A stretch of DNA of 64,000 nucleotides, taken from the NCBI GenBank assembly GCA_965248265.1, contig CBDFJF010000002.1:1792001-1856000 (forward strand). Direction: 5' to 3'. Source of the stretch: Candidatus Latescibacterota bacterium. GTDB taxonomy: Bacteria > Latescibacterota > UBA2968 > UBA8231. Shown in pieces: positions 1,807-63,365 of the stretch. Each line of letters starts with the position of its first letter. Position 1 is the first letter of the stretch. The notes below the pieces were generated by a model. The model ran no database searches, was not told where the DNA came from, and saw nothing but the letters and a program-made list of their open reading frames with translations. A program made the translations under genes and the position numbers.

Positions 1807-2631
1807 TCAAAAGTCCCCGGACAGCGTCACCGAGTCCACGTAGAGAAACGCGCGCTTGTCGCGGTCCGTCTCCACGAAGAAGGTGGCGTTCAGCATGCAC
1901 CACAGGTTGGCCATCGCCGGCATCGCCATCGGCGCCATCCCGGAGACGTCGTAGTGGCGGTCATTGCACTGAAACGCCGTGAAAGCCATCGACTCGAGGT
2001 TGAGGCCGATGCGGATGTAGTGCCAGTTCTGCTTCGTCGCGATCTCGTTGTAGCACAGAAGCTGCTGGCCGTCAGTAACGTCCTCCCATCCCGATTCTGC
2101 GAGGTGGAAATGCGACCGCGTCTTGCCCGATGCGCCGATGTCGGCGAGCTGCTCCCGCCGCCTCTTGAACTGCCAGCGACCCACGGCTTCCCCGTTCAGC
2201 GCGTTCAGGTATCGCAGGTGTGGCATCACGCGGTGTTCGGCGTCCTGCAGGTCAAAGCAGATCCCGACGGCCCGAACATCCAGCTCCGAGAGCTCGAGCT
2301 CGGTCGCTTCCGGCTTGAAGGTAAAGCGAGCTTCCAGCTGGATCGGACCGGCGTGACGAAACGTCACCCGCTTCACGGCGACGGCGAGGTTGCCCGCGGC
2401 GGGGCGCGTCGCCAGCTTCATGGCGTAGGTCCCGTCCCACGAGCCAGCCGACCCGCCGTCCCACATCGTGCTGTTGCTAAGCATCGGACCGGGCATGTCG
2501 CGGTACTGCGGCAGCATGGAGTCGAGCGATTTCTCGTAATTGCCGACCAGGGTGGTCCATCCCTGCAGCCCGCAGTCGAAATCGTCTGCGTAGATGATGC
2601 GGGACAGGGGATCGAAGTGAGAAGATGTCAT
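1807..2631 (-). CDS. Hypothetical beta-sandwich protein (resembles DUF6772)
   Basis: 274-aa ORF, YADDFDCGLQGW...FLYVDSVTLSGDF; co-oriented with 1450-1785. Confidence 0.6.
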   Translation of the reverse strand: MTSSHFDPLSRIIYADDFDCGLQGWTTLVGNYEKSLDSMLPQYRDMPGPMLSNSTMWDGGSAGSWDGTYAMKLATRPAAGNLAVAVKRVTFRHAGPIQLEARFTFKPEATELELSELDVRAVGICFDLQDAEHRVMPHLRYLNALNGEAVGRWQFKRRREQLADIGASGKTRSHFHLAESGWEDVTDGQQLLCYNEIATKQNWHYIRIGLNLESMAFTAFQCNDRHYDVSGMAPMAMPAMANLWCMLNATFFVETDRDKRAFLYVDSVTLSGDF

Positions 2632-2768
2632 CAGCGTTCAGCCAGCGCCGTCAACGCCCCCAACACGCGAATCCGCGCCTCGTCTGCCAACGTGCGGTCC
2701 TCGGTATCTGATTCTCGGTGACTGCTCAAACTAAGCTCCACCAAGTAGATCGAACAGGGCACGACCAC
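2631..2768 (-). pseudogene. Two fused C-terminal gene stubs forming a 45-aa in-frame micro-ORF
   Basis: PCSIYLVELSLS matches the end of 59776-60831; DRTLADEARIRVL matches the 39974-43267 protein. Confidence 0.8.
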
Positions 2769-2777
2769 CGGCGGCCT

Positions 2778-5700
2778 TCACACCTTCGGCAGGTTCCCGA
2801 TGATCTGAGGGGCGCCTCGCATCGGTGAGCAGATGGTTTTGCCGACGCCGCGGTGCACCGTTGGCGGACGTTGGATCGCCGTCTGGATCCCCGCCTCCAG
2901 CACGCGCTTGAAGCGCTCCTCGCCAGTGAACTGGTACGCGGCAGCCACGCCCTTCAGAATGCGCATGTCAGCGTCGGGGTGGAGTTCGGATTCCGGGCAG
3001 CAGGTGTAGCGGAACGTCGCCCGCTCCGGCACCCACATATGATCGATACAGTACCCCGCCGCCCGCACGATTGAATCCGCCACGTCGTTATCGCCGGTCT
3101 CTTCGTGGAACCGCTTCAGTCCGACCATGAGGATGCCGACCATGAACCCGGCGTTCCCCGTGTGCCGCGGCGGGTCGCAGTAGCAGTGCCCGGGCACCAT
3201 CAGCCGGTCCCACCCACCAGAAGCGCGCTGACGCTCGAGCACGCGGTCGACGATGATCCGCGCGGCGTTCACGAAGACGCGCCTACCCGTCGCCCGATAC
3301 GCCGCAAAGAGGTGTATCAAATGCCAGCCTGATTCCCTGCAATTGTCGAAGTCGAAATCGTTGAGGATCTCACCCGCAAGAACCAGCGACACACGCAGAG
3401 CGCTCTCGCGGCTGCGGCCGCCTCCGGTCAGGAGCGCATGGAGGAACAGCCCTTCCACCCACGTGTGGGAAACCATCGTCATCGCGAAAAACATGGCGGA
3501 TTCGCGGTATCCGTTTGGATAGTACTCCCCGACGTGTCCGACACTGTGGATATACTGGGTGTCGATCGGCGTTGTGCCGCCCTTGGCGTGGTTGGTATCG
3601 ACATCCACGAGGTGACGGGCTGCCTCGTCCGCCCACCAGAAGAAGTCCGCCTCACCGCCCCGTAGAAACTCCTGCAGAAAGCACCACGGCGTATCGTATT
3701 CCATGTTCCCCCAGTTGTACGTCCGCTCGCCGAACCAGTCGCCGAAGTTGAGCATACCGTATGCGCGCGAAGAAACGCGGTCGGCTTTGTACGCCTTGTG
3801 CGCCCCTTCCACCCACGCCTCATACGGTGGGTACGGCGACGGATCCTTCGGAGGCAGCCGGGTCCACGCTTCGCTGTCATTCAGAACCGATAGAGGCACG
3901 CGGTAGAGCGGCGGATCGTTCACGGCGCGCAGGGGCTCCGCGTCAGGCGCGTAGCTGACCCAGAACTCGTGTGTCCTCGACACGCCCCGTTTCAGCTTGT
4001 AGCGCCCGTCCAGCAGGTAGAAGAACAGCCGATCCTCCAGCTCCCCTCCACGTGGATACGCCGACGGATCGAGTTCGGGACAGATATCCAACCGGAACCC
4101 GTCTTCATCGACGGCCAGACCTTTCGGGTAATTCTGCCAGAAGTCACGCATCTCCAGTCGCACCGCAGCCCCCTCGCTCTCGATCGACGCAGATCCATCG
4201 GCATGGCGTCCTTGGCTCACCACTTTCCCCTGTCGGCGAACGATAAATCGGTTGTCCTGCAGTTGCGTGAGATCGAGAGCGCCGTCCTTCCTGCTCGTTC
4301 CACCGAGTTCACACCGTTCGATCGCACCCACGTCGACGGGCAAGTTCAGGCTGAGCGAGCGGATCTGTTCGAATTCAGAGCCGCGCAATCCGGTCCCGTC
4401 GTTGACGAACGTGTGTTCGACGCGGATGCGGCGGCTGTTCCTGAAGAAATGGAGGCGCAGGATCGACTGCATCAGGGTCTTCGTCCCGCGCCGGTGACGG
4501 CACTCGATTAGGATGCACGCACGCTCAGGACCGCTTGTTTCGACCACAACCCGGTCTGGCTTCCCGCTGCGGTAAACCCGACCGGTACCATCGACGACGG
4601 AGATTGCCGGCATGCGCCCGACATCGGGCCCCGCGAAGCACCGGGTGGAACCATCGGAATGCTCGATCTCGACAACACCCGGCAGCACAACCTGGCTCTT
4701 TGGAATGCGAACCGTCATCGCACCGGTCGCCACGACGATCGCTCCCTTGACGGATCGCACCGTGACGCCGCTCTTCGACTCGTCGCTGACCGAGCGTCCG
4801 TACTCGACGGCGTAGCTCGATCGTCCGTCCGAATGAAAATCGAGCAGGGCCCACTTGATCGAGCTGTCTTCCCAACGAGACTGAACCCCCACCTGCACAG
4901 GCACAGTCGCGTTGTCGGAATCCAGCAGGCGAATGCAGTCCGGATCCGAGACTGACCCTGCGGCGAAGGGTACCCCGACCGTTACCGGCCAGGAGTGCGA
5001 CGCCGTCTTGACGATTGGCAGGTCGAAGCTGCCGCTCTGCGCTGACTTGGTCGCACGAGATGCCCCGACCCTGAACCTCCCACGTTTGCTGGCCGTCAAG
5101 CGGCCGGTGCGATCGCGCAGTTCGATTTCGTACGACGTCGACCCACTCGGGATTCCGGGTACAACCACCTCGTGGTTGGTTAGAAACGCGTTGAGCCGCG
5201 TGGCTCTGGCTTTCCCGCCCGAGGGACGGACGAGGATCCGCCCCTTCGCGGGCCGGCTCGTGCGCCACGTCAGGTAAGCGCACTGTCTGTCTCCTTCCGT
5301 GCGCACATCCACACGGGGTGAGAGAACGGCCAACTTTTTCGGAGTTTGTCTTGGCCGTTTGCTCAGCAGAACCACGCTCTCGATCCGACACGGACCGTCA
5401 GATCCGTTCGTGACCAGTCGAATCGTTTCACCACCCTTGAACTGTTGCTTCTCCGGCGTAAAGAACAGGTGAACGCGGTTATCCGGATCCGCGAGCGATG
5501 CACGAGCCACCTGCCGGTGTCCGAACCAGATTTCAATCGCTTCTTCCGCTCTCGCCGTAGCGTACATCGTGAAGCCGAGATAGAAACTCCCGGAGGCCCT
5601 GGTCACCTCGCGTAGCTCGCTCACGAGCCGCGCCTTTTGCACCGAGGCTGGGCGGTAGACGGAGGCGTTCGCGTACTCCGTGAACGTATCATTCACGAAA

Positions 5701-5810
5701 CCGTCGAGGTTCTTGCAGGTGAAGGCTGGAATCACAGTCGCATCAGCCAGGAGCCCGGCAATACGCGCGTCACCGGAAACGGCCTCAGCTGTGGGGATGG
5801 CGGATGTCAT
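2778..5810 (-). CDS. Exo-rhamnogalacturonan-lyase-like (PcRGLX/YetA-like) alpha/alpha-barrel protein
   Basis: WPVTVGVPFAAG...SRWEDSSIKWALLDF, RDFWQNYPKGL, GMLNFGDW...WGNMEYD, ARHLVDVD. Confidence 0.75.
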   Translation of the reverse strand: MTSAIPTAEAVSGDARIAGLLADATVIPAFTCKNLDGFVNDTFTEYANASVYRPASVQKARLVSELREVTRASGSFYLGFTMYATARAEEAIEIWFGHRQVARASLADPDNRVHLFFTPEKQQFKGGETIRLVTNGSDGPCRIESVVLLSKRPRQTPKKLAVLSPRVDVRTEGDRQCAYLTWRTSRPAKGRILVRPSGGKARATRLNAFLTNHEVVVPGIPSGSTSYEIELRDRTGRLTASKRGRFRVGASRATKSAQSGSFDLPIVKTASHSWPVTVGVPFAAGSVSDPDCIRLLDSDNATVPVQVGVQSRWEDSSIKWALLDFHSDGRSSYAVEYGRSVSDESKSGVTVRSVKGAIVVATGAMTVRIPKSQVVLPGVVEIEHSDGSTRCFAGPDVGRMPAISVVDGTGRVYRSGKPDRVVVETSGPERACILIECRHRRGTKTLMQSILRLHFFRNSRRIRVEHTFVNDGTGLRGSEFEQIRSLSLNLPVDVGAIERCELGGTSRKDGALDLTQLQDNRFIVRRQGKVVSQGRHADGSASIESEGAAVRLEMRDFWQNYPKGLAVDEDGFRLDICPELDPSAYPRGGELEDRLFFYLLDGRYKLKRGVSRTHEFWVSYAPDAEPLRAVNDPPLYRVPLSVLNDSEAWTRLPPKDPSPYPPYEAWVEGAHKAYKADRVSSRAYGMLNFGDWFGERTYNWGNMEYDTPWCFLQEFLRGGEADFFWWADEAARHLVDVDTNHAKGGTTPIDTQYIHSVGHVGEYYPNGYRESAMFFAMTMVSHTWVEGLFLHALLTGGGRSRESALRVSLVLAGEILNDFDFDNCRESGWHLIHLFAAYRATGRRVFVNAARIIVDRVLERQRASGGWDRLMVPGHCYCDPPRHTGNAGFMVGILMVGLKRFHEETGDNDVADSIVRAAGYCIDHMWVPERATFRYTCCPESELHPDADMRILKGVAAAYQFTGEERFKRVLEAGIQTAIQRPPTVHRGVGKTICSPMRGAPQIIGNLPKV

Positions 5811-5884
5811 ATCTGCGAACCTCTACGGAGTCCGGGGCGAAATGTCCTTGACCGAAGCTCGGTAATGTTACCATTATCGTTGGC

Positions 5885-6133
5885 GTGTTCAAGTGTTCCA
5901 CCTGCCACAACGTGCACGAAGACGAGACGGACCAGACCGCTATGTTTTCGCGCAAGTGCCTGACCTGTCACGAACAATCCCACACTGAAGAGCCCGAACT
6001 GGCGCAGGGCAACCGCTGCACTCAATGCCACATGCCAGATCAGCAAGCGAGCAATCTGCCGGTGTTCCACGAGGGGGAGGAGTGGTTCCTGTCGATGGCC
6101 AATCACCGCATCGGGATCTTCGAGGACCAATAA
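5885..6133 (+). pseudogene. C-terminal stub of a multiheme c-type cytochrome
   Basis: Three CxxCH motifs (CSTCH, CLTCH, CTQCH) and an NHRIGIF end; no signal peptide or N-terminal part. Confidence 0.75.
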
Positions 6134-6208
6134 CACACCCGAGCTCGTGTCAACGCTGCCGAGTCGGACTGCTCCCCACATGATCGCGAAATAGAGAGGG
6201 AAGCACTT

Positions 6209-7201
6209 GTGATCAAGCACGCATGCGGAATCGCAGTGGCGGTGTTGCTGAGTATCTCACCTTCTCATGCTCTGCAGCGGACCGATACGGAATTCAAGAT
6301 CTTCCAGTTCCCCGCCGACATGATTCCCCGCATCGACGGCCAGACCGACGACTGGGCGATGGTGCCCGACAGCTATGCCTACGGAACGGACCAACTCTCC
6401 GACACGGTCAAGGGAAACTTCACCAACTACGACCCTGAAGACCTGGATGTGACCGTGCGCGTCGGTTGGGTCAAGGGGTTGAACCGGCTCTATTTCCTCT
6501 ACGAGGCCTACGACGACTACTGGAACATGTACTACAAGTACGGAGACCTATTCGAAGTCGCCGTCGACGCCGACCGCTCTGGCGGGCCGAACATCGCCAA
6601 CCCCCAGATCGACGACGAATGGGAAAGCCACTTCCTGTTCAAGGGCGTGCACGCCCAGAACTACCACATCTTCACACCTGCCGGAGAAGGGCGGGATTGG
6701 GTCTTCGTCTGGGGGTGTCAGCCGTGGATCGGCCAGCTGCCGTACGCCAACCACGCCTACTCCTACGATTTCGCGGAGGGCGAGAGCGGCAAACTCGTGC
6801 TCGAATTCTGGATCACGCCCTTCGACTACGCTCCCTACGATGGCCCGGAACGGGCCGCCGTGTCGAAGCTGGAGGAGAGCTCGCTGATCGCCTTGTCCTG
6901 GTCGGTCCTCGACTTCGACGAGGACCACACGGAGTATGAGGGGTTCTGGAACCTTTCGCACGAGACGCACATGTACGACGACGCCTCGAACCTGTGCGCC
7001 TTTCGCTTGATGCCACTGGAGCCGGAGTACCTCAAACCGCTCGAGGCGCAATACTCCTATACGGTCGTCGACATGGATCGTCGGATGGTCGCCTTCACGG
7101 ATCGATCCCGTGGTGAGATCACGTCGTGGTCGTGGGACTTCGGCGATGGCACTTCATCGGCCGAACAGCACCCGATTCACCAGTACGACAGACCGGGAGA
7201 A
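6209..7201 (+). pseudogene. Secreted CBM9/DOMON-like + PKD protein, copy 1, lacking the last ~25 codons
   Basis: Signal peptide, PRIDG..DDW, WSWDFGDG; homology to its paralogs stops at RPGE (7201) and the frame runs on to 7354. Confidence 0.8.
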
Positions 7202-7250
7202 GAGCTACCTAAGTGCACGCCTCCGATCAACATATACGAGTGGGGATCGC

Positions 7251-8315
7251 ATGATCAAGCAAGTTTGTGTAGCACTGATGGCCTTGACCGCCTCATCGAG
7301 TCAAGCCCTGCAACGCACCGACACCGAGTTCAAGATCTTCCAATTCCCCCATGACATGATTCCCCGCATCGACGGTGAGATCGACGACTGGGCGATGGTT
7401 CCCGACGACTATGCCTACGGGACCGATCAGATCTCCGACACGGTCATGGGCAACTTCACCAACTACGACCGTGAAGACCTGGACGTCTCCGTGCGGGTGG
7501 GATGGGTCAAGGGGCTCAACCGGCTCTATTTCCTCTATGAGGCCTACGACGACTACTGGAACATGTACTACGGGCGGGGCGATCTGTTCGAGGTTGCCGT
7601 CGACGCCGACCGCTCCGGGGGGCCGAACATCTACAACCCGCAGATCGACGACCAATGGGAGAGCCATTTCCTGTTCAAGGGCGTGCACGCCCAGAACTAC
7701 CACATCTTCACGCCGCCGGGTGAAGGGCGAGACTGGGTTTTCGTCTGGGGTTGCCAACCCTGGATCGGCAAGCTCCCCTACGCCAATCACGCCTATTCTT
7801 ACGACTTCGAGGAGGGCGAGAGCGGCCGTCTCATTCTGGAATTCTGGATCACGCCGTTCGACTACGCCCCGTACGACGGGCCGGAGCGCGCCAGCATCTC
7901 GAAGCTGGTGGAGAACGCGCTGATCGCTCTGTCGTGGTCGGTCCTCGATTACGATGAAAACGACAAAGAGTACGAGGGCTTCTGGAACCTCTCCCACGAG
8001 ACCCGTATGGACAGCGACGCTTCGAATCTGTGCGCCTTCAGACTGATGCCTCTGGAGCCCGAGTACGTGAAGCCACTCGAAGCGCAGTATTCGTTCACCG
8101 TCGTCGACATGGATCGGCGCATGGTCGCCTTCAAAGACGAGTCCCACGGCGAGATCACCTCGTGGTCATGGGACTTCGGCGACGGATCGACTTCGAGTGA
8201 GCAACACCCGATACATCAGTACAGCGAGGCAGGAGAGTTTGTCGTGACCTTGCATGTCGAAGGTCCGAAGGGAAAGGCGCGTCGCGTCAAGGTGTATGAA
8301 GTGATGGTGAAGTGA
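7251..8315 (+). CDS. Secreted CBM9/DOMON-like + PKD domain protein, copy 2 (intact)
   Basis: Start MIKQVCVA with signal peptide; complete PKD (SWSWDFGDG...HPIHQY...FVVTLHV); tandem paralog of 6209. Confidence 0.85.
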   Translation: MIKQVCVALMALTASSSQALQRTDTEFKIFQFPHDMIPRIDGEIDDWAMVPDDYAYGTDQISDTVMGNFTNYDREDLDVSVRVGWVKGLNRLYFLYEAYDDYWNMYYGRGDLFEVAVDADRSGGPNIYNPQIDDQWESHFLFKGVHAQNYHIFTPPGEGRDWVFVWGCQPWIGKLPYANHAYSYDFEEGESGRLILEFWITPFDYAPYDGPERASISKLVENALIALSWSVLDYDENDKEYEGFWNLSHETRMDSDASNLCAFRLMPLEPEYVKPLEAQYSFTVVDMDRRMVAFKDESHGEITSWSWDFGDGSTSSEQHPIHQYSEAGEFVVTLHVEGPKGKARRVKVYEVMVK

Positions 8316-8686
8316 TGCCGGCGAACCGCGAGTGCGTGCTGACGACGTCCAGACCACCTCGTTGCCACAACGGCAGCCTCGAGCAGACGATTCACGCCAT
8401 CAGCGCCCACCACTTTGGCGAGCGCGTTCCGCGTGATTTGGACGACATACCGGCTGAGTACGACCCGTTCGAACTGTCTGTCGACGAGTACGAGGAGCTC
8501 GACCAGCACGTTCGTGCGGCACTGTACCTCGGCGTTCGTCAGCTGAACTGGGCCGGCACGACGTGGACGGGGGTCAACTTCTACGATGACAGCCGCTGCG
8601 TCGACTACCTGATCAGTCGACGGGTAATACACGCCCGATCGCGCCGCTGCACCCATCGGCCCCTCAGTCCAGCCTCAAATTTCTGA
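8312..8686 (+). CDS. Hypothetical protein, possibly partial
   Basis: 124-aa ORF overlapping the upstream stop; no motif recognised. Confidence 0.35.
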   Translation: MMPANRECVLTTSRPPRCHNGSLEQTIHAISAHHFGERVPRDLDDIPAEYDPFELSVDEYEELDQHVRAALYLGVRQLNWAGTTWTGVNFYDDSRCVDYLISRRVIHARSRRCTHRPLSPASNF

Positions 8687-8766
8687 CTCGACAGCATCTC
8701 CCAGCCGACATACCCTACCCATAACGGCCGCTTATAATTCCTCGTATACGTCAGGAGATTCTGCTC

Positions 8767-10299
8767 ATGTCAGCACAGCAGACCGTGAATATCGGCTCGA
8801 GACTGGAACTCATGGTGGACGACTATCTCATCCAGTCCATGACCGCCAAAGCGGAGTTGCGGCTTCACCAGCCGGTGCGGCGGGAGATCGTGTTCGAGAG
8901 TGACGCACCTTGGGAGGGGAATGCCTGTGGGTTTCAGTCAATCGTCAGTGACGATGGGCGGCATCGCATCTACTACCATGGCCTCCATTACCGAAACAGC
9001 GGAGAGCCGGCGCAGAAGCGCGAGGATCACACGGCCTGCCTGTGCTTCATCGAGAGCGAGGACGGCATCCACTGGGAGCGGCCCGAGCTGGGACTCTTCG
9101 ATTTCACTGGCTCGAAGGCCAACAACATCATCTTGACCCCTGAAGCCGTCGCGGAGGTCGGTGGCGGCCCGGCACTTACCTCGGTGCTCAAGGACGAGAA
9201 CCCCGAGTGTCCGCCGGACGCGAAGTTCAAGATCGTGATGCTTGGCAGTGAGCCCAATGGGTTGTATCTCCTCAAGTCCGGAGATGGCGTGCACTTCTCA
9301 CTGATGAGCAAGACCGCGGCCATCACGCACGACGCGTACGGCGCGTTCGACTCGCAGAACCTGATGTTCTGGGACTCCGTGCGCCAGGAATACCGTGAGT
9401 ACCATCGCGGCTTCAACGAGGGCGTGCGCGACATCATGACGGCCGTCTCGCCCGATCCTCTCCACTTCCCCGACTCGGAGTGGCTCTCGTACCCCGGCGC
9501 GCCGGTGGAGCAACTGTACAACAATCAGATCGTCCCTTACTACCGTGCACCACATATCTTCATGGGCTTCCCGGCGCGCTATCAGAAGCGCGAGTGGTCG
9601 GAACCGCTCTATGCAGTCCCCGGTCTGGAGGAGCGTCTGGCTCGGGCCAAATCCCATGAGCGGCACGGCTCGGCCATCACCGACGCGCTCTTCATGACTA
9701 GCCGCGATGGGCTCAACTTCAAGCGCTGGCCCGAGGCGTTCATCCGCCCGGGGCCGCGGTTGCGGGAGAGCTGGGTCTACGGGGACAACTATATGTTCTG
9801 GGGCATGGTCGAGACGCCGTCAGCCACCGAGGACGCACCCAAGGAGATCTCGATGTACGCGTCCGATGGCTACTGGGAGGGCATCTCCAACAGCGTGCGA
9901 CGGTACACCCTGCGTCAGGATGGTTTCGTGTCGGTCGCCGCGCCGCTGTCGGGCGGCGAGATCGTGACCAAGCCCATTGTCTTTGAGGGAGGCAACTTGA
10001 CGTTGAACGTGGAGACCTCTGGAGCCGGAGGAGTACAGGTAGAGATCCAAGACGAGGCGGGGACGCCGATCGAGGGGTACGGCCTCGACGACTGCCCGGC
10101 CATCTTCTGCGATTCGCTGCGCCGCGTCGTAAGGTGGAAGAAGAAGGGTGGCGATGTCCGACCGCTGTCGGCCAGGCCGGTGCGATTGCGGTTTGTGATG
10201 CGAGACGCAGACCTGTACGCGTTCCAGTTCGTGCCCTACGAGCCCGATCCTGCGGCGCCGGACCTGAGCGGAATCGAGCTGCCCAAGCAGGATGCATAG
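8767..10299 (+). CDS. Five-bladed beta-propeller glycoside-hydrolase-like protein (GH32/GH43 clan-like)
   Basis: IGSRLELMVDD, APWEGN, ESEDGIHWERPELGL, FDSQN..FWD, LRQDGFVS, VRLRFVMRDADLYAFQF; RBS AGGAG. Confidence 0.8.
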   Translation: MSAQQTVNIGSRLELMVDDYLIQSMTAKAELRLHQPVRREIVFESDAPWEGNACGFQSIVSDDGRHRIYYHGLHYRNSGEPAQKREDHTACLCFIESEDGIHWERPELGLFDFTGSKANNIILTPEAVAEVGGGPALTSVLKDENPECPPDAKFKIVMLGSEPNGLYLLKSGDGVHFSLMSKTAAITHDAYGAFDSQNLMFWDSVRQEYREYHRGFNEGVRDIMTAVSPDPLHFPDSEWLSYPGAPVEQLYNNQIVPYYRAPHIFMGFPARYQKREWSEPLYAVPGLEERLARAKSHERHGSAITDALFMTSRDGLNFKRWPEAFIRPGPRLRESWVYGDNYMFWGMVETPSATEDAPKEISMYASDGYWEGISNSVRRYTLRQDGFVSVAAPLSGGEIVTKPIVFEGGNLTLNVETSGAGGVQVEIQDEAGTPIEGYGLDDCPAIFCDSLRRVVRWKKKGGDVRPLSARPVRLRFVMRDADLYAFQFVPYEPDPAAPDLSGIELPKQDA

Positions 10300-10344
10300 G
10301 TATGGCCGCCACAGTGGATCGCAGGTTGGCTATCGTCCTCGTTC

Positions 10345-10758
10345 TCGCGGCCTCAGCGGTCTGCGCCTTCTTCCGGTACGATACCGGCGCGGGAGACCTC
10401 TTCAACTCCTACGACCACAACCCTGGTGGCAATCCGCACGAAACGGCCGACTATTGTGTTGTCTATTCGGACTGGTACCCGTACTATCCCTCCAAGGAAA
10501 AGGCGAAGAAGATCAAGATCATACCAGGGCGTCGTTGGAAGAGCTGGTACCAGGGCACCCAGGACTATCGGTGCGTGTTCATCTGTCGTGAGCTCATCGC
10601 GGAGCTCAGAGAGGCAGGTAAAGACGTAGCCACGTTCGAGACGGTCCTTCAACAGGGCCATCGCGAGCGCGGTTGACCGTTCCGGGGCCGCAATGGATGC
10701 CTCGCGCGAGAAGCTCGTCCGCGCGGCCGTCCAGATGCAGGAACTGCTGGACGAGTAA
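10345..10758 (+). pseudogene. C-terminal ~135 codons of a paralog of 12590-15913
   Basis: IIPGRRWKSWYQGTQDYR..ICRELI and SGAAMDASREKLVRAAVQMQ align to the end of the 12590 protein; +1 frameshift near 10655. Confidence 0.85.
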
Positions 10759-10882
10759 GGCAAGATGACGGAAAGGCCTTTGCCCATCACCTCGAGGGCT
10801 TCCGTGCCTGGCTCGTGAAGATGTGCTGATTGGTGCCTGGATGAGATCCGTCCATGCACACATCCCGAAGAGGACAGACATC

Positions 10883-12418
10883 ATGATCTCACCTTACAGA
10901 AACCTGGGATATCCCTTTACACTCTCCTCCGACATCGTGTACTTTCATGACTGGCGCTACGTGCACCACGGCAGCGTGGGTTGGTCCGAGGACGGCGGCA
11001 GGACCCCCATGTCGACCACTGACCCGGTGCCGCCTATGCGGTTCGAGCCGCGCCTTCTGCCCGTCGGCATTCGCCTGTGCGCGCAGCCGGCACAGAAGAC
11101 CGCGCCTTTCCTCGAACCCCAAATGGATGACGAGATCATCCTGTTCGCCGGCACAGTCATACACGACGAGGGTCGCTATCGCTTCTGGTTCGACTGCTGG
11201 CCCACAGACCACACCCACCACGAGCGTTACAAGACGGGCATGTTCAACCATGTACGCTATGGCGAGTCGGACGATGGGGAGAACTGGACCTTCCCGAAGC
11301 TCAACTTGATCGAACGCCACGGCAGCGCGGACAACAACGTGGTGTACGGCCCGTCGCTCACCCCGGAGACGGGCTACTTCTACGGCTCCGTGTTCAAGGA
11401 TCCGTCCGCGCCTCCTGGGGAGCACTACAAGATGATCTACCAGGGCCATCCCTCCGAGGCGACGAAGGAACGCTACCTACGCGAGCGACCCGACGACGTG
11501 GACAGTATCAACCGGGGACGACCGGATTGGTCCGCCTTCTTCGGCGCGGTTTCACCCGACGGGTTGCGCTGGACTCCGCTGGAGGAGCCGCTGGTCGCCA
11601 AGTACAGCGACACCCACAACATGTGCGAGTACGATCCTGTGCTGGAGCGGTACGTGGCCTACTGCCGCAACTGGTTCTTCTCCCGCCGGAGCATCGGCCG
11701 CATTGTCTCGCACAACTTCCGCCGCTTCCCGCTCTCCGAGGAGGTACTCTGGCCCGATCCCACCATGGACCCCGATGAGCTGTGGTACGCCAACGGCAAG
11801 ACAAAGATGCCTGGCACGACCGACTATCACGTCATGTTCCCCATGCGCTGGAGCATCCGCCACGACAAATTCGACTTCCACCTGTTCACCAGCCCGGACA
11901 ACCTGAGCTGGCACCGCGTGCCCGGGGGACCTGTCTGCGAAGTGGGCGATCCGGGTGACTGGGACGGCGGCGTGGTCGCCCCGGGGATCGGGCTGGTGGA
12001 GCTGCCCGGAGGGCGTATGGGCGTGCCCTTGGTCGGATCGAAGGTGCCACACAAATACCCGCGCAAGGCCCCCTTAGGTGCCATCGGCTGGGCGTGGTGG
12101 CCGAAGGGTCGGCTCGTGGCGCTGAAGGCGGACGTTGAGGCATCGTTCGCGCTCCAGCCGCTCAAGATCTCACAGCGCCAGGCGATCCTCAACTGTCGGA
12201 CCGCGCCGGCCGGCTCGGTGCAGGTGGAAGTGCTCGGTCCGGCCGGCGAGGTGCTGCCGGGGCGCGCTTTTGCGGACTGCGACTGGATCGTCGGTGATCA
12301 CTTGGAGCGGGCGATCACCTGGAAGGGCGAGGCCGATCTAAGCCACAACGGCGACGGTCCCATCACTTTGTGCTTCAAGATGCGCTGCGCCGAGCTTTAC
12401 AGTGTGGCGTTCAGATGA
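10883..12418 (+). CDS. Beta-propeller glycoside-hydrolase-like protein
   Basis: YGESDDGENWTFPKLNL, SVFKDP, SPDGLRW, GDWDGG, AELYSVAF; same family as 8767. Confidence 0.78.
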   Translation: MISPYRNLGYPFTLSSDIVYFHDWRYVHHGSVGWSEDGGRTPMSTTDPVPPMRFEPRLLPVGIRLCAQPAQKTAPFLEPQMDDEIILFAGTVIHDEGRYRFWFDCWPTDHTHHERYKTGMFNHVRYGESDDGENWTFPKLNLIERHGSADNNVVYGPSLTPETGYFYGSVFKDPSAPPGEHYKMIYQGHPSEATKERYLRERPDDVDSINRGRPDWSAFFGAVSPDGLRWTPLEEPLVAKYSDTHNMCEYDPVLERYVAYCRNWFFSRRSIGRIVSHNFRRFPLSEEVLWPDPTMDPDELWYANGKTKMPGTTDYHVMFPMRWSIRHDKFDFHLFTSPDNLSWHRVPGGPVCEVGDPGDWDGGVVAPGIGLVELPGGRMGVPLVGSKVPHKYPRKAPLGAIGWAWWPKGRLVALKADVEASFALQPLKISQRQAILNCRTAPAGSVQVEVLGPAGEVLPGRAFADCDWIVGDHLERAITWKGEADLSHNGDGPITLCFKMRCAELYSVAFR

Positions 12419-52252: not shown

Positions 52253-52255
52253 ACA

Positions 52256-52363: not shown

Positions 52364-52418
52364 CGCCAGGGAGGCAAACAGCGGTAGGTAGAGAAGAGAA
52401 ATTCAAAGGAGGTCCAAT

Positions 52419-52769: not shown

Positions 52770-52803
52770 ACCTGCCTCCCCGCGCACCCTTTACTGCACT
52801 ATC

Positions 52804-53180: not shown

Positions 53181-53322
53181 ATCCGACCCATTCGCACCCT
53201 TCGAAACGCCTCTCGACCAACCCAGATTCTCGTTGTACACTACTGATAACCCTTCTTATCGGCCCTATCCTTTGATTTGGATCGCTTCCAGGTTAGCAGG
53301 ATCGATCGAAGGAACTAACCAG

Positions 53323-53599
53323 CTAGCTGAATTGGAACGCGTAAAGGTCGACGTCACGCATGACGAAACGTAGTCGAATAGGTTTTCCGGCTAGTTCGCT
53401 TATGTCTGATTTGCCTTGCCAGGTTACAACTCTGTTGATTTCGTTGGTTGTGTGAATGCGGTCGCAATCTTCGAGTCTGTAGCCAGCTGATCCAGAGAGA
53501 GTGATAGCTCCCAGCTCATCCAGGATCTCCACCCGAAGTTCTCCTACCGCTGACGTGTCCACGTTCAACATTAGCTCGTTTCCATTGAATCTCAGTACT
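53323..53599 (-). pseudogene. C-terminal ~90 codons of a beta-propeller hydrolase-like gene
   Basis: LMLNVDTSAVGELRVEILD...IRLRFVMRDVDLYAFQFS. Confidence 0.8.
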
Positions 53600-53650
53600 T
53601 GAATCGCCCCGGGGTTGCCGGAGGCTCCATTTCTTGAGAGGATTGGAGTC

Positions 53651-54882
<1,232 letters not shown>

Positions 54883-54912
54883 CCGAGTCTCCGAAAAACC
54901 CGGGGCGATTCA

Positions 54913-55518
54913 ATCCCAGAAACCCACGTTCTGCGAGTCGAAACCGCCCTCGGTAATCAGGGGCCTGTCGCTGACGAGCTCCCAGTGCAAGCCATCGGGG
55001 CTCTGCATGCCGTAAAGCCCTGCACCCTCCCCTGTTCCATGACGCCCGAAGGCCTTGTACCTGCTCTCCGGTTTCAGCCCGGGCCTCTCGTCCCTGAAAG
55101 GGGTGAATCCGTGAGTCCCGACCTGGTCCGGGTCCGCCCCGTCCAGGACGATATTGTTCCTCTTCGAGCCATCGATCTCGCAGATGTCCAGTTCGGGTCT
55201 CTCCCACATGATACCGTCCCGGCTCTCGGCGTAGGCGATACGCAGCGGCGTGAGGTCCTCCCTGTACTTGCCGGGACCGTCCTCCGAGAGGACGCCGTGA
55301 TGGGCCTTGTAGTACATCCTGACGACATCACCGTCCGCGAAGGCGGTTACGTATCCCGCGTGATTCCCTTCCCATGGGGCGTCCGTGACCAGTGCCGCTT
55401 CCCGGGGGACGGGCTCATGGAGCCGGTACTCCGCCCTGCCCTTGAGCTCTTCCGCAAGCCATTCGTCGACGAAGAGCTCCAGACGGCTGCCGATGTCCAT
55501 TACTTCCTTCGGTTCCAT
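54913..55518 (-). pseudogene. N-terminal 202 codons of a beta-propeller hydrolase-like gene, cut by IS3
   Basis: IGSRLELFVD, APWEGN, FDSQNVGFWD, then the IS end. Confidence 0.85.
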
Positions 55519-55615
55519 AGTCCCACTTCCTTGCTCATGACGCCCGAGTTTGCGCAGCTCAGCACGGGCAATACGTCCCTACACCAGCACAACCTTCCCT
55601 CCGTACGGTCGTGAG

Positions 55616-56422
55616 TCAGCGAAGCGCGCCACGCGGCTGCAGGGCGTGTTTGCCGAAGATCACGGGGAAAGCGTCGCCGCTCTCGATGCTTCTCGTGCGC
55701 GCGTCCATGTAGGCGATGCTGAAGGCCCGGCGCGGCCTGTCCGTCGCATTGACCCCAGAGCGATGCAGCATCCAGTTGTGGATCAGCACGGCCTCACCCA
55801 CCGGCACTTCGAGGTCAATCACCCGGTCGGGCGAACAGTGCGCCTGCTGTTCTTGCGATGAGGCGAAGTGACTCTCGTTCAGAATCCCCAGCTTATGGCT
55901 ACCGGGCACGATCTGCATACAACCCGTGTCTACAGTCGCATCGTCGAGGGCCGTCCACACGGTCGTCGTCGGGTTCGAATCGATTCCCCATCCTTTGCCC
56001 ACGTCCTGATGCCAGGGAAGCTCCGTGCCTTTGTTGGCCGGTTTGTTCATGAACATCGAGCGAAAGACGGAGACATTGTCACCGATGTAGCGGCGAGTAA
56101 TCTCACGGAAGAGTGGATGCCGCATGTAGGTGAGAAACAGTTCATCGTGATGCAGTTCGTCGACGCGGCGGTAAGACAGGCTGCGCTCTGAAATACCGGC
56201 GGTAGCCTGTGCCAGGATGTAGCTGCTGCTGTCCCCATCCAGCTGAAATTGAATGCCCTCAATAACGACGTTGCCGAGCATCAGATCGTCGATGCGCGTA
56301 CGAAGAGCTGAGAGTTCGCCGTCCGAGAGCAAGCGGCCGAGACGCGCGTAGCCGTCCTGCTCGAACTGCTCGCCTTGCATGTCCGTGAAGGGCGGACAGG
56401 ATGTCGATGCATTCAGCGTCAT
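55616..56422 (-). CDS. Phytanoyl-CoA dioxygenase (PhyH) family protein
   Basis: PWHQD, WTALDDAT..GCMQIVPGSH, LHRSG.N...RRA. Confidence 0.9.
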   Translation of the reverse strand: MTLNASTSCPPFTDMQGEQFEQDGYARLGRLLSDGELSALRTRIDDLMLGNVVIEGIQFQLDGDSSSYILAQATAGISERSLSYRRVDELHHDELFLTYMRHPLFREITRRYIGDNVSVFRSMFMNKPANKGTELPWHQDVGKGWGIDSNPTTTVWTALDDATVDTGCMQIVPGSHKLGILNESHFASSQEQQAHCSPDRVIDLEVPVGEAVLIHNWMLHRSGVNATDRPRRAFSIAYMDARTRSIESGDAFPVIFGKHALQPRGALR

Positions 56423-56464
56423 TCGCGCAAACCTGCCATCGTGCTCATTTCTCGACGGTGACCT

Positions 56465-56880
56465 TCACCTTGCGCTCGGGGCGCCCAGCTCCCGACGCAC
56501 CAGCCGTGTTCCTTCGACCAGGGCGATGAGCTTGGCATAGGCTACATCTCGGTCAAAATACTTGAGTCCGCAGTCGGGTGCCGGTTGCAGCCGCTGGGGT
56601 GACGTGTGCTCCATCGCCCCACGGATGCGCTCGGCCACTGTCTCAGGCGTCTCGATCTGCCGTAACCGCAGCAGATGTGGATGGCCTTCGTAGCCTGGAC
56701 GCCGTCTAGGGCCGCGTTGAAGGCGTCGATCCCGTACTCGAGCGCCTGCTCGGTCCGTGCTTCCATGTAGGGCTCGTCCAACTGGATCACGTCTGCGCCG
56801 GCCGCAGCCAGATCGTGCATTTCCTCGTTGACGGCACGCGCCAGATCCATCGTCAGCCGGCGAGGGTCTCCGTAGTGGTT
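56465..56880 (-). pseudogene. Cobalamin-independent methionine synthase II relic
   Basis: IQLDEP, HICCGYG joined out of frame to IETPETVA..PAPDCGL; no N-terminus. Confidence 0.82.
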
Positions 56881-57087
56881 TATCAGTATCCCTGTTGTTC
56901 CTCAAAGAAGCTTCAGCGATGTGCATTATAAGGCGCTGTAAACGATGGTCCAACCGAGTATTCATTCTCGTCATCACGGCCTGTCGCCGGGACGGGATCT
57001 CTGCTGAAGCACAAGGCGTTGTTGTCGCCGGCCCTCCGATTCACTACAATGCCCAGCGAGTGTGCTGAAGCAAACCGAGGAAAGGCC

Positions 57088-59089: not shown

Positions 59090-59203
59090 GTCTGTCGAGT
59101 GCCCAGCGCTCGAGCCGGTTGGTCGTGATCAGCCACCCTGTATTCCCCACAGGTTTTCCTTGAGTCAGCTGTTAATGTTGATTGACGATCAGGTACAGAT
59201 TTC

Positions 59204-59540
59204 ATGACCCACCCTTCACCTCTTTCCTTGAAGGGACTCCTCATCGGAGCGGCCATGAGCCTCGCCGTCGGGCTGGCGGCTCCGTATGGCCTCGCCTTCA
59301 CGTATTTCCGCATCGGATTCAACCCCTCGTCACCGGGCGCCATCTTCCTTTTCCTCGTCCTTCTCCTCGTCAACGTTCTCTTCAGCCTCGTGCGGTGTCA
59401 ATTCACGCTGTCGCGGGCCGATCTCGTGCTCGTCTATTGCATGCTCCTGATGGCGGTCACCACGCCGACCTGGGGGCTCATGTTCTCTGGTGGCCCTTCC
59501 ACCCCCTCGGTTTCGCCCTCAGCGTCGGCTGGCTAACCGG
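59204..59540 (+). pseudogene. Collapsed third DUF6785 transporter
   Basis: N-terminal ~94 codons joined out of frame to the C-terminal WWPFHPLGF motif. Confidence 0.8.
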
Positions 59541-59775
59541 CGATTTCTACATCGCTGATTCAACCGGAGACCTCTACCAGCTGACTATGGTGCCGCCGGA
59601 GGATCGTCCGTCGGAACAGGATTACGTCAACATCTGGCGTTGAGATCGAACCTTCCTTTTCCTTCTCAGTGCCCGTCAGATCCATACTGCGATTCCCGGG
59701 CGCTGCCTGCTAAACGGCACGCCGTGCGGTGACGGCGGCACTATGGGAGATCCCGGTCAACCGGAAAGGCAGAGC

Positions 59776-60831
59776 ATGACCAGATTACCAGAAATTCACG
59801 TCGATTCGGTGCGCAAGATTTTCGACGACGGGAGTCACAACGGGTTTACCGACATGTGCCGTTTCGGCGGCAAGATGTATCTGTGCTTCCGCTCGTGTCC
59901 AGACGGACACATGGTGTTCCCCACCTCCCGCGTCGTCGTCCTCTCCAGCAACGATGGTGTGGACTGGGAGCAGGTGCATGCGTTCAGCGTGCCTGATCGG
60001 GATACGCGCGATCCGAAATTCCTGAGCTTCAAGGACCAACTGTTCGTCTACACCAGCACCTGGTACTGCGGGGATTTGGCGCCAGAGGGGAATTGGAGGC
60101 ACCCCGAAATGAACCAGCAGCTTGGGTATGCAGCGGTAAGCGCCGACGGCAGCACGTGGAGCGAGCCGATCGTACTGGAAGGAACCTACGGGCATTTCAT
60201 CTGGCGGGCGGCAGCGCACGGCGGAACGGCGTACCTGTGTGGCCGACGAAAGCGCGGATTCGTCGAGCTGCAGGACGACGATCGGTCCTTCCACGAATCC
60301 GCTATGCTGGCAAGCGACGACGGGCTCGTCTGGCGGACACACGCTTTTTTTCAAACGACGCACGGAAACGAGACCGCTTTTCTGTTCGAGCCCGACGGTA
60401 GCGTGTTGGCGGTTGCCCGGTGCACGATGGATAACTCACAACTCTGCCGCTCCAACCCGCCGTATTCCGAGTGGGTCCGAACCGACCTGAATTGCTTCAT
60501 CGGCGGCCCGCTGTTGGTCAAATGGGGTGCCCGGTACCTGGTCGGGGGGCGCAAGCCCTTCAAGCCGGTATCTGGCCGGTATCCATTGGGCTTCTACACC
60601 GACACCGATGCCCTACCACCGGACGATCCCCGGACAGTCCTGTACTGGTTGGAAGGCGACCGTCTGGTCGATGCCGCAGAGTTGCCCAGCGGCGGTGACA
60701 ACTCCTATCCCGGGTTCATCGAACTCAGCCCCACGAGGGGGCTACTTTCGTACTATTCCAGTCACGAGGGCAGCCGGTCGGGGGTCGCGCCCTGTTCGAT
60801 CTACCTGGCGGAGCTAAGCTTGAGCGAGTAA
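59776..60831 (+). CDS. Sialidase-like propeller protein
   Basis: HNGFTD, SNDGVDW, DTRDP, GNETA, LPSGGDNSYPG, SYYSSHE. Confidence 0.72.
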   Translation: MTRLPEIHVDSVRKIFDDGSHNGFTDMCRFGGKMYLCFRSCPDGHMVFPTSRVVVLSSNDGVDWEQVHAFSVPDRDTRDPKFLSFKDQLFVYTSTWYCGDLAPEGNWRHPEMNQQLGYAAVSADGSTWSEPIVLEGTYGHFIWRAAAHGGTAYLCGRRKRGFVELQDDDRSFHESAMLASDDGLVWRTHAFFQTTHGNETAFLFEPDGSVLAVARCTMDNSQLCRSNPPYSEWVRTDLNCFIGGPLLVKWGARYLVGGRKPFKPVSGRYPLGFYTDTDALPPDDPRTVLYWLEGDRLVDAAELPSGGDNSYPGFIELSPTRGLLSYYSSHEGSRSGVAPCSIYLAELSLSE

Positions 60832-61154
60832 GGAGGCCAACACATGCGATTCTTTCACCTTATCACACTCGCCGTCTGCTGCCTGGCCGTCCGTCCGGGG
60901 CCTGTCTGGACCCGTGGCCGCCAACTGGATGAGGAGAACGACCGACAGCTCGCCCAACAGCCTGCCACGCTAATCGCACCGCATCTCGCCTTTATCTTGT
61001 TCCTCCCCCGACAATTGCATATACTTTCATTGTGCGTTCGGCTGCATCAACAGACCATCCTCGCGCAGCAAGCCGCAGCCCGGACATTCACAATCCGAGG
61101 GCGCTTGACATGACATATTCGATGCTATCCACCTCCTCCAAATCCTTCTGCCAG

Positions 61155-63152
61155 ATGACGACGGGAATGCTCCTGCTCGTCTCAATCACCCTCGCTCTCA
61201 ATGCGCGCGTCGCTTCGGGTGTGACCATCTACCGCATCGGCCAGCCCTTTTCCGAGGCGGAAAGGGATAGCCTGGAGGGGATCGACATTGAGCTCAGGGA
61301 GCTCGGGTGGTCGGAGAACTCGCAGCTGGAGGACGCCCTCGATCCGGACTCGCTACAGGTCGGTATCCTGCAGCCCAATTTCATCGGGGGAGACCACGAT
61401 ATTGCCTCATCGATATTGGACAGAGGCGGCTGGGTGGTCGCGCAGCGGCGGGCTGGCAAAGGTACCTTCGACCAAACACAAGCAAATGCAATGCTCGATC
61501 AGGATCCGAATACGTATTACTCGTGGCCGGCCCAAACTCAGGCGTACCTCGACCTTCGCGCCTCCTGTTGTAACGACCCTTTTGCAGCGTTGCATGTGAA
61601 TTTCGATCTGGGCGGGCGATTCCACATCACGGAAGTGAGATTCCGGACTCTACCGGACAGCACGAACCACTTCGTGGAGCGATTCAGGTTCGGTGCCGGC
61701 GACGAGGTTATCGATTGCTGTAACTGGACCGGGGATCTCCCGCTTGTTGCGGAGGTGAAAGACAATACCGAACCCGAGGTCATCTTGAAGCTCGATCCTG
61801 GGGTGACGACCAACTTCGTTCAGTTGCTGATCATGCGGAAGACGCCCAAGGAGGTCGGGTTGGCTGCGTTCGAGCTGTACGGAGGAGGGTACGCGAAGCA
61901 GGCCTCGTATGAATCCGACGTCATCGAGCTGGACGACATCGCCAGTCTGGGCGAGATCCGCTGGTCTGGACGGCAGGATCCCCGCGCCCAGGTCGCTATC
62001 CGCACCCGGGCAGGCGCCGACGCGCACCCGGTCATTTTCTGGGAGGTCCGCCGCGCGCAGAATGACCTCGTCCCGTTTCTGCTGGGGGGCGGCGACCTGA
62101 GTATGACGGAGTACAAGAGCCAGTATGACAGACTGCCAAATACTGCCAAACCGGACCCCGAGCCGCCCAAGGACCTCGGCGGCTTCGTGGGCGGCGTACG
62201 GGGGGACCCGATTACTCTCGACACGGAGCACTGGAGCTTCTATTCGCGTCCGTATGCGTTCGGGAATCCCGGGGTCCCTGTCGCATCCCCCGGTCCTCGA
62301 AAGTTCGTCCAGATCAGTGTGGATTTTGCCTCCACCACCGTCGCGGAGGGGGGCAAGCTCGACTACATAGAGTTCAAGGCATCGGTACCGCCGTTGGTCC
62401 GCCGCCTGGTAGGTGAGATTCACCCGATCCTGACCCGGGTGGGCGAAGCGACGCAGTTTACGTATTACCTCAGTCCGACGATCCGTTCCGGCGACAGCAG
62501 CTTCGATGGAGTGGAAATCGCGACGCCTTCAGGGGTGGTGTCGGTCGATTCGCTGCGCATAGCCGGGGAAGACCAGGATTTTTCGTGGACCGAACACGAC
62601 GATGGCCTGGGTTTTCAGCTTCTGCTCCCGCGCCGGCTGGAGTCGACGGACAGCGGCACGCTGGTGGAGGTGGTGTTCACCGCTCCCGTACTCAGAGAAG
62701 CAGGCACCCTGTTTGAAGGCAGGGTGTTCGACACGACCCGGCCGCACGAGGTGCGGCAGCGGGTTGTGCCGGGCAATGCCAACGATGAGGTCGAGGGTGA
62801 TCGCCTGTCGGTCAGTACAGCGCTGAGCGAATCGCTGGTGTTTTCACCTCACGTTTCGCCCAATCCGTTCACGCCGAACGGCGACGGGGTGAACGAGACG
62901 GCGAACGTAGCGTACAAGCTGCTGCGGTTGACCTCAGCAGTACCGGTTTCGCTCGAGATCTACGATCTGTCGGGCAGGCTGGTGAGGCGGGTGTATGAGG
63001 GGGAGGATGCGGTGGGTGAGTACAGCCACGCGTGGGACGGCCGGGACGACGGAGACGAGCTCGTGCCGCCTGGGCTGTATCTGTACCGGCTCGTGGTGGA
63101 CGTACAGTCAGGTAAGGAGACCAACAGCGGCGTCGTCGCGGTGGCCTATTGA
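61155..63152 (+). CDS. Secreted discoidin-like + FlgD-Ig domain protein (paralog of 31860-33785)
   Basis: Shared MTTGM start, DLGGRF, SPGPRKF, PNPFTPNGDGVN..PPGLY..VAY; alternative start at 61110. Confidence 0.82.
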   Translation: MTTGMLLLVSITLALNARVASGVTIYRIGQPFSEAERDSLEGIDIELRELGWSENSQLEDALDPDSLQVGILQPNFIGGDHDIASSILDRGGWVVAQRRAGKGTFDQTQANAMLDQDPNTYYSWPAQTQAYLDLRASCCNDPFAALHVNFDLGGRFHITEVRFRTLPDSTNHFVERFRFGAGDEVIDCCNWTGDLPLVAEVKDNTEPEVILKLDPGVTTNFVQLLIMRKTPKEVGLAAFELYGGGYAKQASYESDVIELDDIASLGEIRWSGRQDPRAQVAIRTRAGADAHPVIFWEVRRAQNDLVPFLLGGGDLSMTEYKSQYDRLPNTAKPDPEPPKDLGGFVGGVRGDPITLDTEHWSFYSRPYAFGNPGVPVASPGPRKFVQISVDFASTTVAEGGKLDYIEFKASVPPLVRRLVGEIHPILTRVGEATQFTYYLSPTIRSGDSSFDGVEIATPSGVVSVDSLRIAGEDQDFSWTEHDDGLGFQLLLPRRLESTDSGTLVEVVFTAPVLREAGTLFEGRVFDTTRPHEVRQRVVPGNANDEVEGDRLSVSTALSESLVFSPHVSPNPFTPNGDGVNETANVAYKLLRLTSAVPVSLEIYDLSGRLVRRVYEGEDAVGEYSHAWDGRDDGDELVPPGLYLYRLVVDVQSGKETNSGVVAVAY

Positions 63153-63255
63153 GGCAAAACAGAGCTCCCCAGCTCCACCCCCGGAGCGCGCGTCAAGGGA
63201 GCAGCACAATCAGATGACAGCCAGATGACAGCGCGGCACGACCGGCGCCGTATGA

Positions 63256-63365
63256 CCAGAAGGTGTCCATCCTGCCATCCATGACGTCGGTGTCGCTCGG
63301 GCGATTGGATCCGGCAGCTAATAATATTCCGCCGCCGAACTCGGCGGCATTGAGGGCGGCGTTGA
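63256..63365 (-). pseudogene. Internal shard of a paralog of 29043-31826
   Basis: NAALNAAEFGGGILLAAGSNRPSDTDVMDGRMDTFW matches 31362-31468 with substitutions and a 3-nt insertion. Confidence 0.85.

Follow-up and report, generated by a model that had tools for sequence, protein, structure and literature searches.

Gene shards and ISCR-type origin ends in a genomic island of a Latescibacterota bacterium

Introduction

Why should intact genes in a bacterial chromosome be separated by pieces of other genes? The question is raised by a 64-kb stretch of a Candidatus Latescibacterota genome, positions C2:1792001-1856000 of G000 (7.32 Mb in two contigs, C1 and C2), here called the window. Its intact genes encode, as judged by Pfam matches, secreted proteins with PKD, LamG/CBM9, F5/8 and FlgD-Ig/CHU_C domains, together with DUF6785 membrane proteins, BNR and PcRGLX-like enzymes and small catabolic enzymes. 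A first-pass annotation had described the spacers as a patchwork of gene shards left by repeated import of one-gene modules. The recombination marks that it missed, and the only specific ones that we found, are a transposase and the origin ends (oriIS) of a rolling-circle element of the insertion sequence common region (ISCR) type. We conclude that the island was likely built by one-sided capture of the ISCR kind followed by illegitimate erosion, with the shards as a residue of both steps, a reading to which we assign a probability of roughly 0.6.

Results

Extent of the shard patchwork

Genes were called with a purpose-made hexamer model, and a shard was defined as a match of at least 45% identity that covers less than half of a protein of at least 250 amino acids. 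Fragments were recovered between the intact genes. Eighteen of the 20 positions at which they had been reported match longer genes of this genome or of relatives, at 32-100% amino acid identity, and the remaining two are borne out indirectly, 16175 by its inverted similarity (79%) to the shard at 10489-10577, and 19535 as the point where a frameshifted gene for a large serine recombinase (PF00239, PF07508 and PF13408 on 19768-20888) is cut off. The 3' stubs upstream of intact genes and the 5' stub downstream of one at 60844 are also present by fragment matches, and four relics have kept both ends and lost the middle (15940-16108, 28336-28990, 59200-59541 and 44990-45708).

In shard density the window exceeds the rest of the genome, with 30 shards against 371 in the whole genome (3.2 per 64 kb). 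Its true number is about 27, as two of the 30 both come from the 5' end of a single gene disrupted by a 1-bp frameshift and one belongs to the IS3 copy. That frameshift, a 1-bp deletion at 23708 relative to the related genome G038, affects the 5' end of gene 22233-23761 and marks either a pseudogene or a sequence error. The bin C2:1.80-1.85 Mb is the richest of all 147 in the genome, with 23 shards. As bounded by shards, ends and G038 matches, the island spans about 190 kb (about C2:1.76-1.95 Mb). No tRNA gene lies at its edges or anywhere on C2 from 1.06 to 2.57 Mb, and tRNA-anchored integration was rejected on this ground.

The ISCR-type element and its origin ends

The transposase gene at 50384-51835 is an intact frame of 483 amino acids with matches to PF04986 and PF14319 (Y2_Tnp and Zn_Tnp_IS91), and the alignment shows the zinc-binding cysteines, the H-I-H motif and the conserved tyrosine. 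The protein is 39-41% identical to its ISCR1/ISVsa3 counterparts. Its segment LEKLCRYVARP aligns with LERLCRYISRP, and in an alignment that held no protein of IS91 proper the catalytic motif reads L-x-[RK]-L-x-R-Y, as in ISCR1/2. This motif has one tyrosine in ISCR1/2, against two in IS91. The oriIS lies downstream of the transposase gene and ends with CCTAT plus 4 nt, its last nine bases being the same as in ISVsa3, CCTATACGT. The two ends of the element are dissimilar, without terminal inverted repeats, and target duplications are absent, unrelated flanks being found at all 17 tips that have a donor. The copies at 50307 and 44990 start at the same base with different flanks, and of a hairpin at 50297-50317, near the left end where the terIS of such an element would lie, half is flanking sequence. 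Judged by these sequence features, the element likely belongs to the ISCR elements of the IS91 family.

Origin ends were located by a profile, since a bare CCTATAC scan proved too common (260 matches). The profile finds 74 oriIS-like ends in the genome and none in the reversed genome, and a second family adds 15. Those in the window terminate at 8751, 35525, 45708, 47005 (minus strand), 52059 and 53272; one more, at 64148, falls just beyond the window border. The copies have a fixed right end and a variable left truncation (71-503 bp). Sixty of 73 ends face a co-oriented gene, compared to 54% of controls, and three in the window sit 15-126 bp before intact genes. A promoter-like motif of two hexamers spaced by 16-18 nt, presumably of the sigma-70 type, is retained in 43 of the 74. 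The parts of such elements in the window are as follows.

8620-8751, plus strand: orphan oriIS end found by the profile, 16 bp before the intact gene 8767-10299; 97.6% identical to a G038 end in another context.
35225-35525, plus strand: oriIS end with a transposase 3' tip, located 126 bp upstream of the DUF6785 gene 35651-37633; G038 has end and gene together as one block (35458-37692, 95.1%).
44990-45708, plus strand: non-autonomous relic with the element's left end (99.2% to 50307-50432), a 174-bp foreign gene piece (45116-45289, 98.9% to C2:1147646-1147473), a transposase 3' tip and oriIS.
47005-47357, minus strand: oriIS end of the second family, some 15 bp upstream of where a BNR-repeat gene starts; 99-100% to ends at C2:1.134-1.157 Mb.
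50307-52059, plus strand: ISCR-type (IS91-family) element with left end at about 50307, transposase 50384-51835 and oriIS end CCTAT-ACGT at 52059.
52061-52276, minus strand: piece of a different ISCR transposase in inverted orientation, immediately following the 4-mer of the oriIS.
53239-53272, plus strand: short oriIS tip joined directly to the 3' gene stub 53272-53606, which is 94.3% identical to C2:2775323-2774990.

Further ends of this kind occur elsewhere on C2. Eight co-oriented second-family tips lie within 23 kb at C2:1134270-1157884, downstream of one near-complete transposase, and most directly precede a gene stub derived from some other locus; it is of these that the window end 47005 is a near-identical copy. 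In three places (C2:2796042-2796053, 2691316-2691340 and 1156213-1156231) the oriIS tip forms a tandem mini-duplication with a spacing of 11-24 bp. A stretch of 1.33 kb is present twice at 100% identity in circularly permuted form (C2:2709432-2710763 and 2728428-2729758), and one of the joints coincides with an oriIS-like tip. This may reflect a circular intermediate, though we take it only as a hint.

Joining at the ends

A match to a donor sequence starts at the tip in 17 of 67 tips, but in only 72 of 1474 control points; the donors are paralogs of 74-96% identity and not always the true donor, and two of the 17 tips represent one event seen in two genomes. In eight of the 17 the match begins exactly 4 nt after CCTAT, in a donor without the 4-mer, and in none of the 17 could the upstream flank of the donor be found within 3 kb on the other side of the end. 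Sequence shared upstream of the ends stops at the 4-mer in 25 of 41 cases, and the three tip junctions for which both donors are available are all blunt. Together these observations and the left truncations indicate that the 4-mer belongs to the element; no preference for a target is evident, and the joining is apparently one-sided.

The ends also track the shards. A shard follows directly after 13 of 75 tips, compared to 3.7% of control points, and across the 147 bins of 50 kb shard counts correlate with oriIS ends (rho 0.56), but not with other multicopy elements (rho 0.12, p 0.15). Bins with at least two ends average 7.4 shards, the others 1.4.

The junctions away from the tips are of a different type. 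The first-pass annotation had proposed tabulating junction microhomologies, and of 45 non-tip junctions, a set that includes the ends of ordinary insertion sequences (IS), 14 contain fillers of 1-22 nt and 31 show overlaps, of 0 nt in ten, 1 nt in five, 2 nt in two, 3 nt in four, 4 nt in four and 8-25 nt in six. Microhomology is thus mostly confined to 0-4 nt or replaced by fillers, with few longer overlaps, and the generic shard junctions are illegitimate events, whereas the tip junctions are precise and one-sided.

Comparison with a genome of another genus

G038 belongs to a different GTDB genus, with an rpoB identity of 74.0%, but 48% of the window recurs in it, rearranged, at an identity of at least 88%, and a further 13,288 bp at 99.1% are common to both just beyond the window. 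The synteny that was to be looked for in other genomes exists: window 12486-33946 (21.5 kb) has a collinear counterpart in G038 that occupies 35.3 kb. Relative to that stretch the window lacks segments of about 2.3, 1.5, 2.0, 5.9 and 0.45 kb, and a G038 stretch of 4.6 kb is replaced by the recombinase remnant. The relic at 15940-16108 retains the ends of a gene that G038 has in intact form at the same place, and the window holds an inverted copy of that gene at 10791-12469; the direction of change is certain only where, as here, a window relic is the broken form of a gene intact in G038. One G038 oriIS lies inside a stretch absent from the collinear part of the window and recurs at window 8620-8745, and later deletion can therefore erase ends. 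The comparison confirms that the patchwork is a real, actively remodelled island shared between genera and no artefact. It also bears out the import and compaction of modules with ragged flanks, but not their limitation to one gene, as they often hold several and reach 13.3 kb at 99.1%.

A proposed mechanism in steps

In a first step, an oriIS end would be joined blunt, 4 nt after CCTAT, to a site without sequence preference and often within a gene, so that the island would gain the DNA downstream of the end, headed by a ragged stub; the pattern is read directly from the junctions, and from it we infer the enzyme. In a second step, motif-free deletions, inversions and short insertions with overlaps of 0-4 nt or fillers of 1-22 nt remove DNA, as the G038 alignment shows, including the transposase genes and the oriIS ends themselves. 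Genes behind the promoter-like motif of an end may then tend to be kept. Blocks also move between genera.

A bolder version holds that ISCR origin ends are portable, promoter-bearing capture points, at which the single-tyrosine transposase would make the origin-side joint only and host end joining the other; repeated rounds would yield gene-shuffling islands reminiscent of Helitrons, swapping domains in frame and passing blocks of more than 10 kb between genera. We regard this extension as possible, if on the doubtful side.

Alternative explanations

The main rival to capture at ISCR ends is a generic transfer hotspot, in which homology-assisted or illegitimate recombination or end joining, followed by erosion, assembles the island and the ISCR ends are passengers. 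Several observations lend it weight or count against our own reading. Only two of the 30 window shards have an end within 80 bp, most junctions have neither a nearby end nor a motif, and the 45 non-tip junctions show the fillers and overlaps tabulated above. No motif was found at 115 sharp breakpoints, and a target tetranucleotide at generic shard ends was rejected, the best 4-mer occurring 10 times against 3.0 expected, which is not significant over 256 words. A search for a passenger gene upstream of one oriIS at two targets found none, so that read-through mobilisation is unsupported. It may also be that dispensable DNA simply accumulates ends and shards alike. Finally, transposition of ISCR elements had not been shown experimentally as of 2018 according to PMC6218425, and 'may transpose' is still the wording of PMC13393415 in 2026.

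Related genomes bear on both readings. Nine cluster regions from eight relatives were compared, two of them (in G044 and G065) mapped gene by gene and the rest picked via DNA matches. In the two that were mapped, the gene families of the window form compact clusters in which the spacers are short. None of the nine has oriIS ends or transposase matches, and they hold 1.6-7.5 shards per 64 kb, with 12.8 in one region of 20 kb, compared to 32 in G000 and 18 in G038, a contrast in favor of ISCR capture. In ISCR islands elsewhere the figure is 11.6 for G018 (control region 1.1) and 7.5 for G015, the latter hardly above the 7.2 of a G038 control region without ends, which again speaks against our reading. 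Matches to the Y2 transposase are numerous in G018 (40), G038 (25), G015 (19) and G000 (16), but few in G017 (3), G044 (2) and G065 (1) and absent from G059 and G060. The compact clusters of the relatives were probably inherited vertically, and ISCR load is therefore confounded with recent transfer, a further point against our reading.

End joining by Ku would give such a hotspot its machinery, and the genome does encode Ku beside a gene that we label LigD-like from its translation. However, Ku is not enough, as G044, G059, G017 and G064 have it and maintain clean clusters, nor is it needed, as G018 without a Ku match shows the tenfold shard excess in its ISCR island given above, and Ku with non-homologous end joining was rejected as the sole cause. 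The generic hotspot further leaves the precise, one-sided tip junctions unaccounted for, as well as the failure of other multicopy elements to track shards, and we consider it rather unlikely, though it deserves to be taken seriously. The Ku gene and its neighbor, of 773 amino acids, lie at C2:400343-403685, and Ku is present in 18 of 60 relatives, patchily by genus.

The first-pass annotation had seen in the island a library, that is, shards retained by selection as a reservoir for new proteins. Nothing that we found indicates that selection keeps or reuses them. One case would fit: the LamG + CBM9 block of gene 12590-15913, at 12665-14203, is replaced by 39 bp, in frame, in G038 and in contigs of the sequencing runs X1, X3 and X6, so that its presence segregates among the contigs of one sample as well as between genomes. 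However, four of five homologs found for this gene carry CBM9 or LamG at that place, so that loss is as likely as gain, and no DNA donor of the block was found in the genome or in the regions of three relatives that were searched. Shards are moreover cut at arbitrary places and shrunken relative to G038, and the ratio of nonsynonymous to synonymous changes (pN/pS) does not separate them (0.16, 23 changes) from genes (0.40). As few shards touch an end and most junctions are motif-free, they are likely residue, and a selected reservoir is highly improbable.

Equally improbable is that the oriIS ends are dif-like sites shuffled by XerC/D or a related tyrosine recombinase, in the manner of pdif modules. 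The idea has its basis in a perfect 11-6-11 palindrome at C2:3484647-3484674, 1.7 kb from the GC-skew maximum, which the ends match at 15-18 of 22 positions; 68 sites match it at 16 or more of 22 with a 6-nt spacer, compared to 7 in the reversed genome. Nevertheless, none of the 41 shared-upstream matches stops in the 6-nt core, on which ground Xer crossover at the ends was rejected, and 25 stop at the transposon tip. The palindrome itself (up to two mismatches) occurs in only 5 of 30 relatives and lies beside a tyrosine recombinase gene, and on both counts it is no more than a candidate dif site. Four similar sequences form a cluster at C2:3430611-3431488, at a large distance from the ISCR transposases.

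Assembly or amplification chimeras are practically negligible as a cause: the runs that hold most of the window, X1 and X3, derive from a single sample, possibly the assembly source, but many shards and junctions are common to the separately assembled G038, short contigs of these runs bridge the window-specific joints 5893, 14204, 16108, 19575, 20724 and 20855 (among 32 of 634 pieces listed), and only 5.8% of the window is at least 99% identical to another place in the genome. This contig check covered window 1200-21000, and for the junctions beyond it the evidence is the comparison of genomes. Run X6, which belongs to a different study, yielded a 10.3-kb contig that has the longer layout.

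Two further candidates were set aside. No parts of an integron were found in the window, in agreement with the earlier claim that integron-type sites are missing. It has neither an IntI-type tyrosine recombinase nor a cassette repeat, includes none of the 18 PF00589 matches of the genome, and its spacers share no repeat besides transposon pieces and paralogs, in a search of which an attC covariance model was not part. A retro-element route was rejected since none of the six reverse-transcriptase genes of the genome is in the window, where the IS3 ALIL signal is the only Rfam match. The six are frames of 449 amino acids in two near-identical groups (C2:784615, C2:3892011 and C1:647745-726240) and are presumably mobile introns.

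Other features of the window

Besides the element parts given above, the window comprises the following shards, relics and modules.

2631-2711, minus strand: 3' stub, by fragment matches, directly before the DUF6772 gene 1807-2631.
5882-7201, plus strand: 3' stub (5882-6130), the tail of the native upstream neighbor of the PKD gene in G065, and a PKD gene cut near its end, with a 4-nt joint to the next PKD gene 7278-8315.
10345-10790, plus strand: 3' shard derived from a gene paralogous to 12590-15913, with an amino acid identity of about 50%.
10791-12469, plus strand: inverted copy of a one-gene module (gene 10883-12418), 98.3% to G038; same layout in a contig of run X6.
12665-14203, plus strand: LamG + CBM9 block, in frame, of gene 12590-15913.
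15940-16108, minus strand: relic of the module copied at 10791-12469, with both ends, about 1.49 kb lost and overlaps of 3-4 nt at the joints.
19535-20816, minus strand: large serine recombinase remnant, frameshifted and truncated, by Pfam and reading of the frame.
21068-33773, minus strand (21068-22000 plus): remnant of the ancestral compact cluster with secreted F5/8 and FlgD-Ig/CHU_C proteins and a protein of 893 amino acids (23838-26519) that has no Pfam match and homologs mostly in Candidatus Latescibacterota.
28336-28990, minus strand: FlgD-Ig gene relic, 3' tip and 5' pieces with the foreign shard 28421-28648 between them; 5.9 kb and 0.45 kb shorter than in G038.
33983-35290: shards 33983-34111 and 34955-35290 around the 739-bp module 34231-34969, which has an inverted duplicate at 63366-64104 (99.6% identity).
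37658-38497: shard 37658-37750 and the frameshifted 3' half of a PKD gene (37860-38497).
47409-48075, plus strand: 3' stub 47409-47611 and the broken 5' part of the next gene.
49264-50306: shard 49264-49497, then a module (a gene and its neighbor's 5' stub; 87.5% to C1:1257960-1258822) stopping at the element's left end.
52262-53193, plus strand: 3' stub 52262-52342, SnoaL gene 52419-52769 and Kelch gene 5' shard 52800-53193.
53587-54916, plus strand: ordinary IS3-family copy with the ALIL frameshift signal, a passenger.
54913-56889, minus strand: 5' shard 54913-55518, PhyH gene and split shard 56483-56889.
59200-59541, plus strand: DUF6785-like relic, the first 86 codons blunt-joined to a 55-bp later piece.
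60844-60969, plus strand: 5' stub downstream of gene 59809-60831.
63256-63365, minus strand: internal FlgD-Ig gene shard, blunt-joined to the duplicated module.

At 2631-2634 the stop codon of the first stub overlaps the start codon of the DUF6772 gene, an arrangement that could give translational coupling. The secreted FlgD-Ig protein at 39974-43234 has an internal repeat of about 190 codons (42074-43145) and counts 1086 amino acids, compared to 773 in its G065 homolog. Outside the window, the two ends of contig C2 (C2:4131971 end and C2:1-9859) have 9.9 kb in common at 99.98%, an unresolved assembly overlap or a repeat.

Discussion

As a system the island is not new and belongs to the known ISCR kind. 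With ISCR1 of complex class 1 integrons, ISCR2/ISVsa3 and ISPps1-type elements it has in common the HUH transposase, the catalytic motif and the oriIS end of CCTAT plus 4 nt. For ISCR1, PMC6218425 describes variable DNA on the oriIS side, with which the tip junctions of the island agree, and outward promoters facing co-oriented genes, and PMC3575428 gives ISCR-type elements as free of target duplication. The island differs in that no class 1 integron and no resistance genes are present, the cargo being genes for glycan use, transport and secreted proteins, and in that dozens of orphan, left-truncated ends that resemble a dif-like palindrome are spread over the chromosome.

IS91, IS801 and IS1294 have transposases of the same Pfam families. 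Their orphan ori ends can be driven in trans and cause deletions and rearrangements (PMC6354349), termination fails in 1-14% of cases and mobilises adjacent DNA (PMC13181058), and IS91 and IS801 insert next to a target tetranucleotide (PMC13181058, PMC6354349). Their one-ended events, too, end at such tetramers. In the present case the 4-mer is the element's own and left truncations show no tetramer; a target-encoded tetranucleotide, with which the element would have been assigned to this group proper, is not seen, as in eight of 17 cases the donor match starts right behind the 4-mer and the donor lacks it.

The HUH chemistry and non-autonomous copies with a foreign gene piece, such as 44990-45708, are reminiscent of Helitrons, rolling-circle elements of eukaryotes that take up pieces of genes, but here there is no helicase domain, most shards lie outside element boundaries and the captured DNA is found beyond the origin end. 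With integrons and pdif modules the island has accessory gene arrays in common, and perhaps a platform promoter and dif-like sites, but its modules are ragged and not bounded by sites, and neither a cassette repeat nor a core crossover is found. Our search of the openly accessible literature, at the level of listings, returned no paper on islands of ISCR ends in Latescibacterota or on dif-like ISCR ends.

ISCR elements have been blamed for the movement of resistance genes, and before-and-after comparators for an ISCR island are rare. The island described here offers an intact transposase and joints that are resolved to the base and whose donors can be identified, next to relatives with compact related clusters and another genus with a sister layout, and it records the transfer of 13 kb at 99% identity between genera that are only 74% identical at rpoB. 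Its reading as a product of one-sided ISCR capture makes sharp, testable predictions: an end 4 nt after CCTAT, no target preference and one-sided joining.

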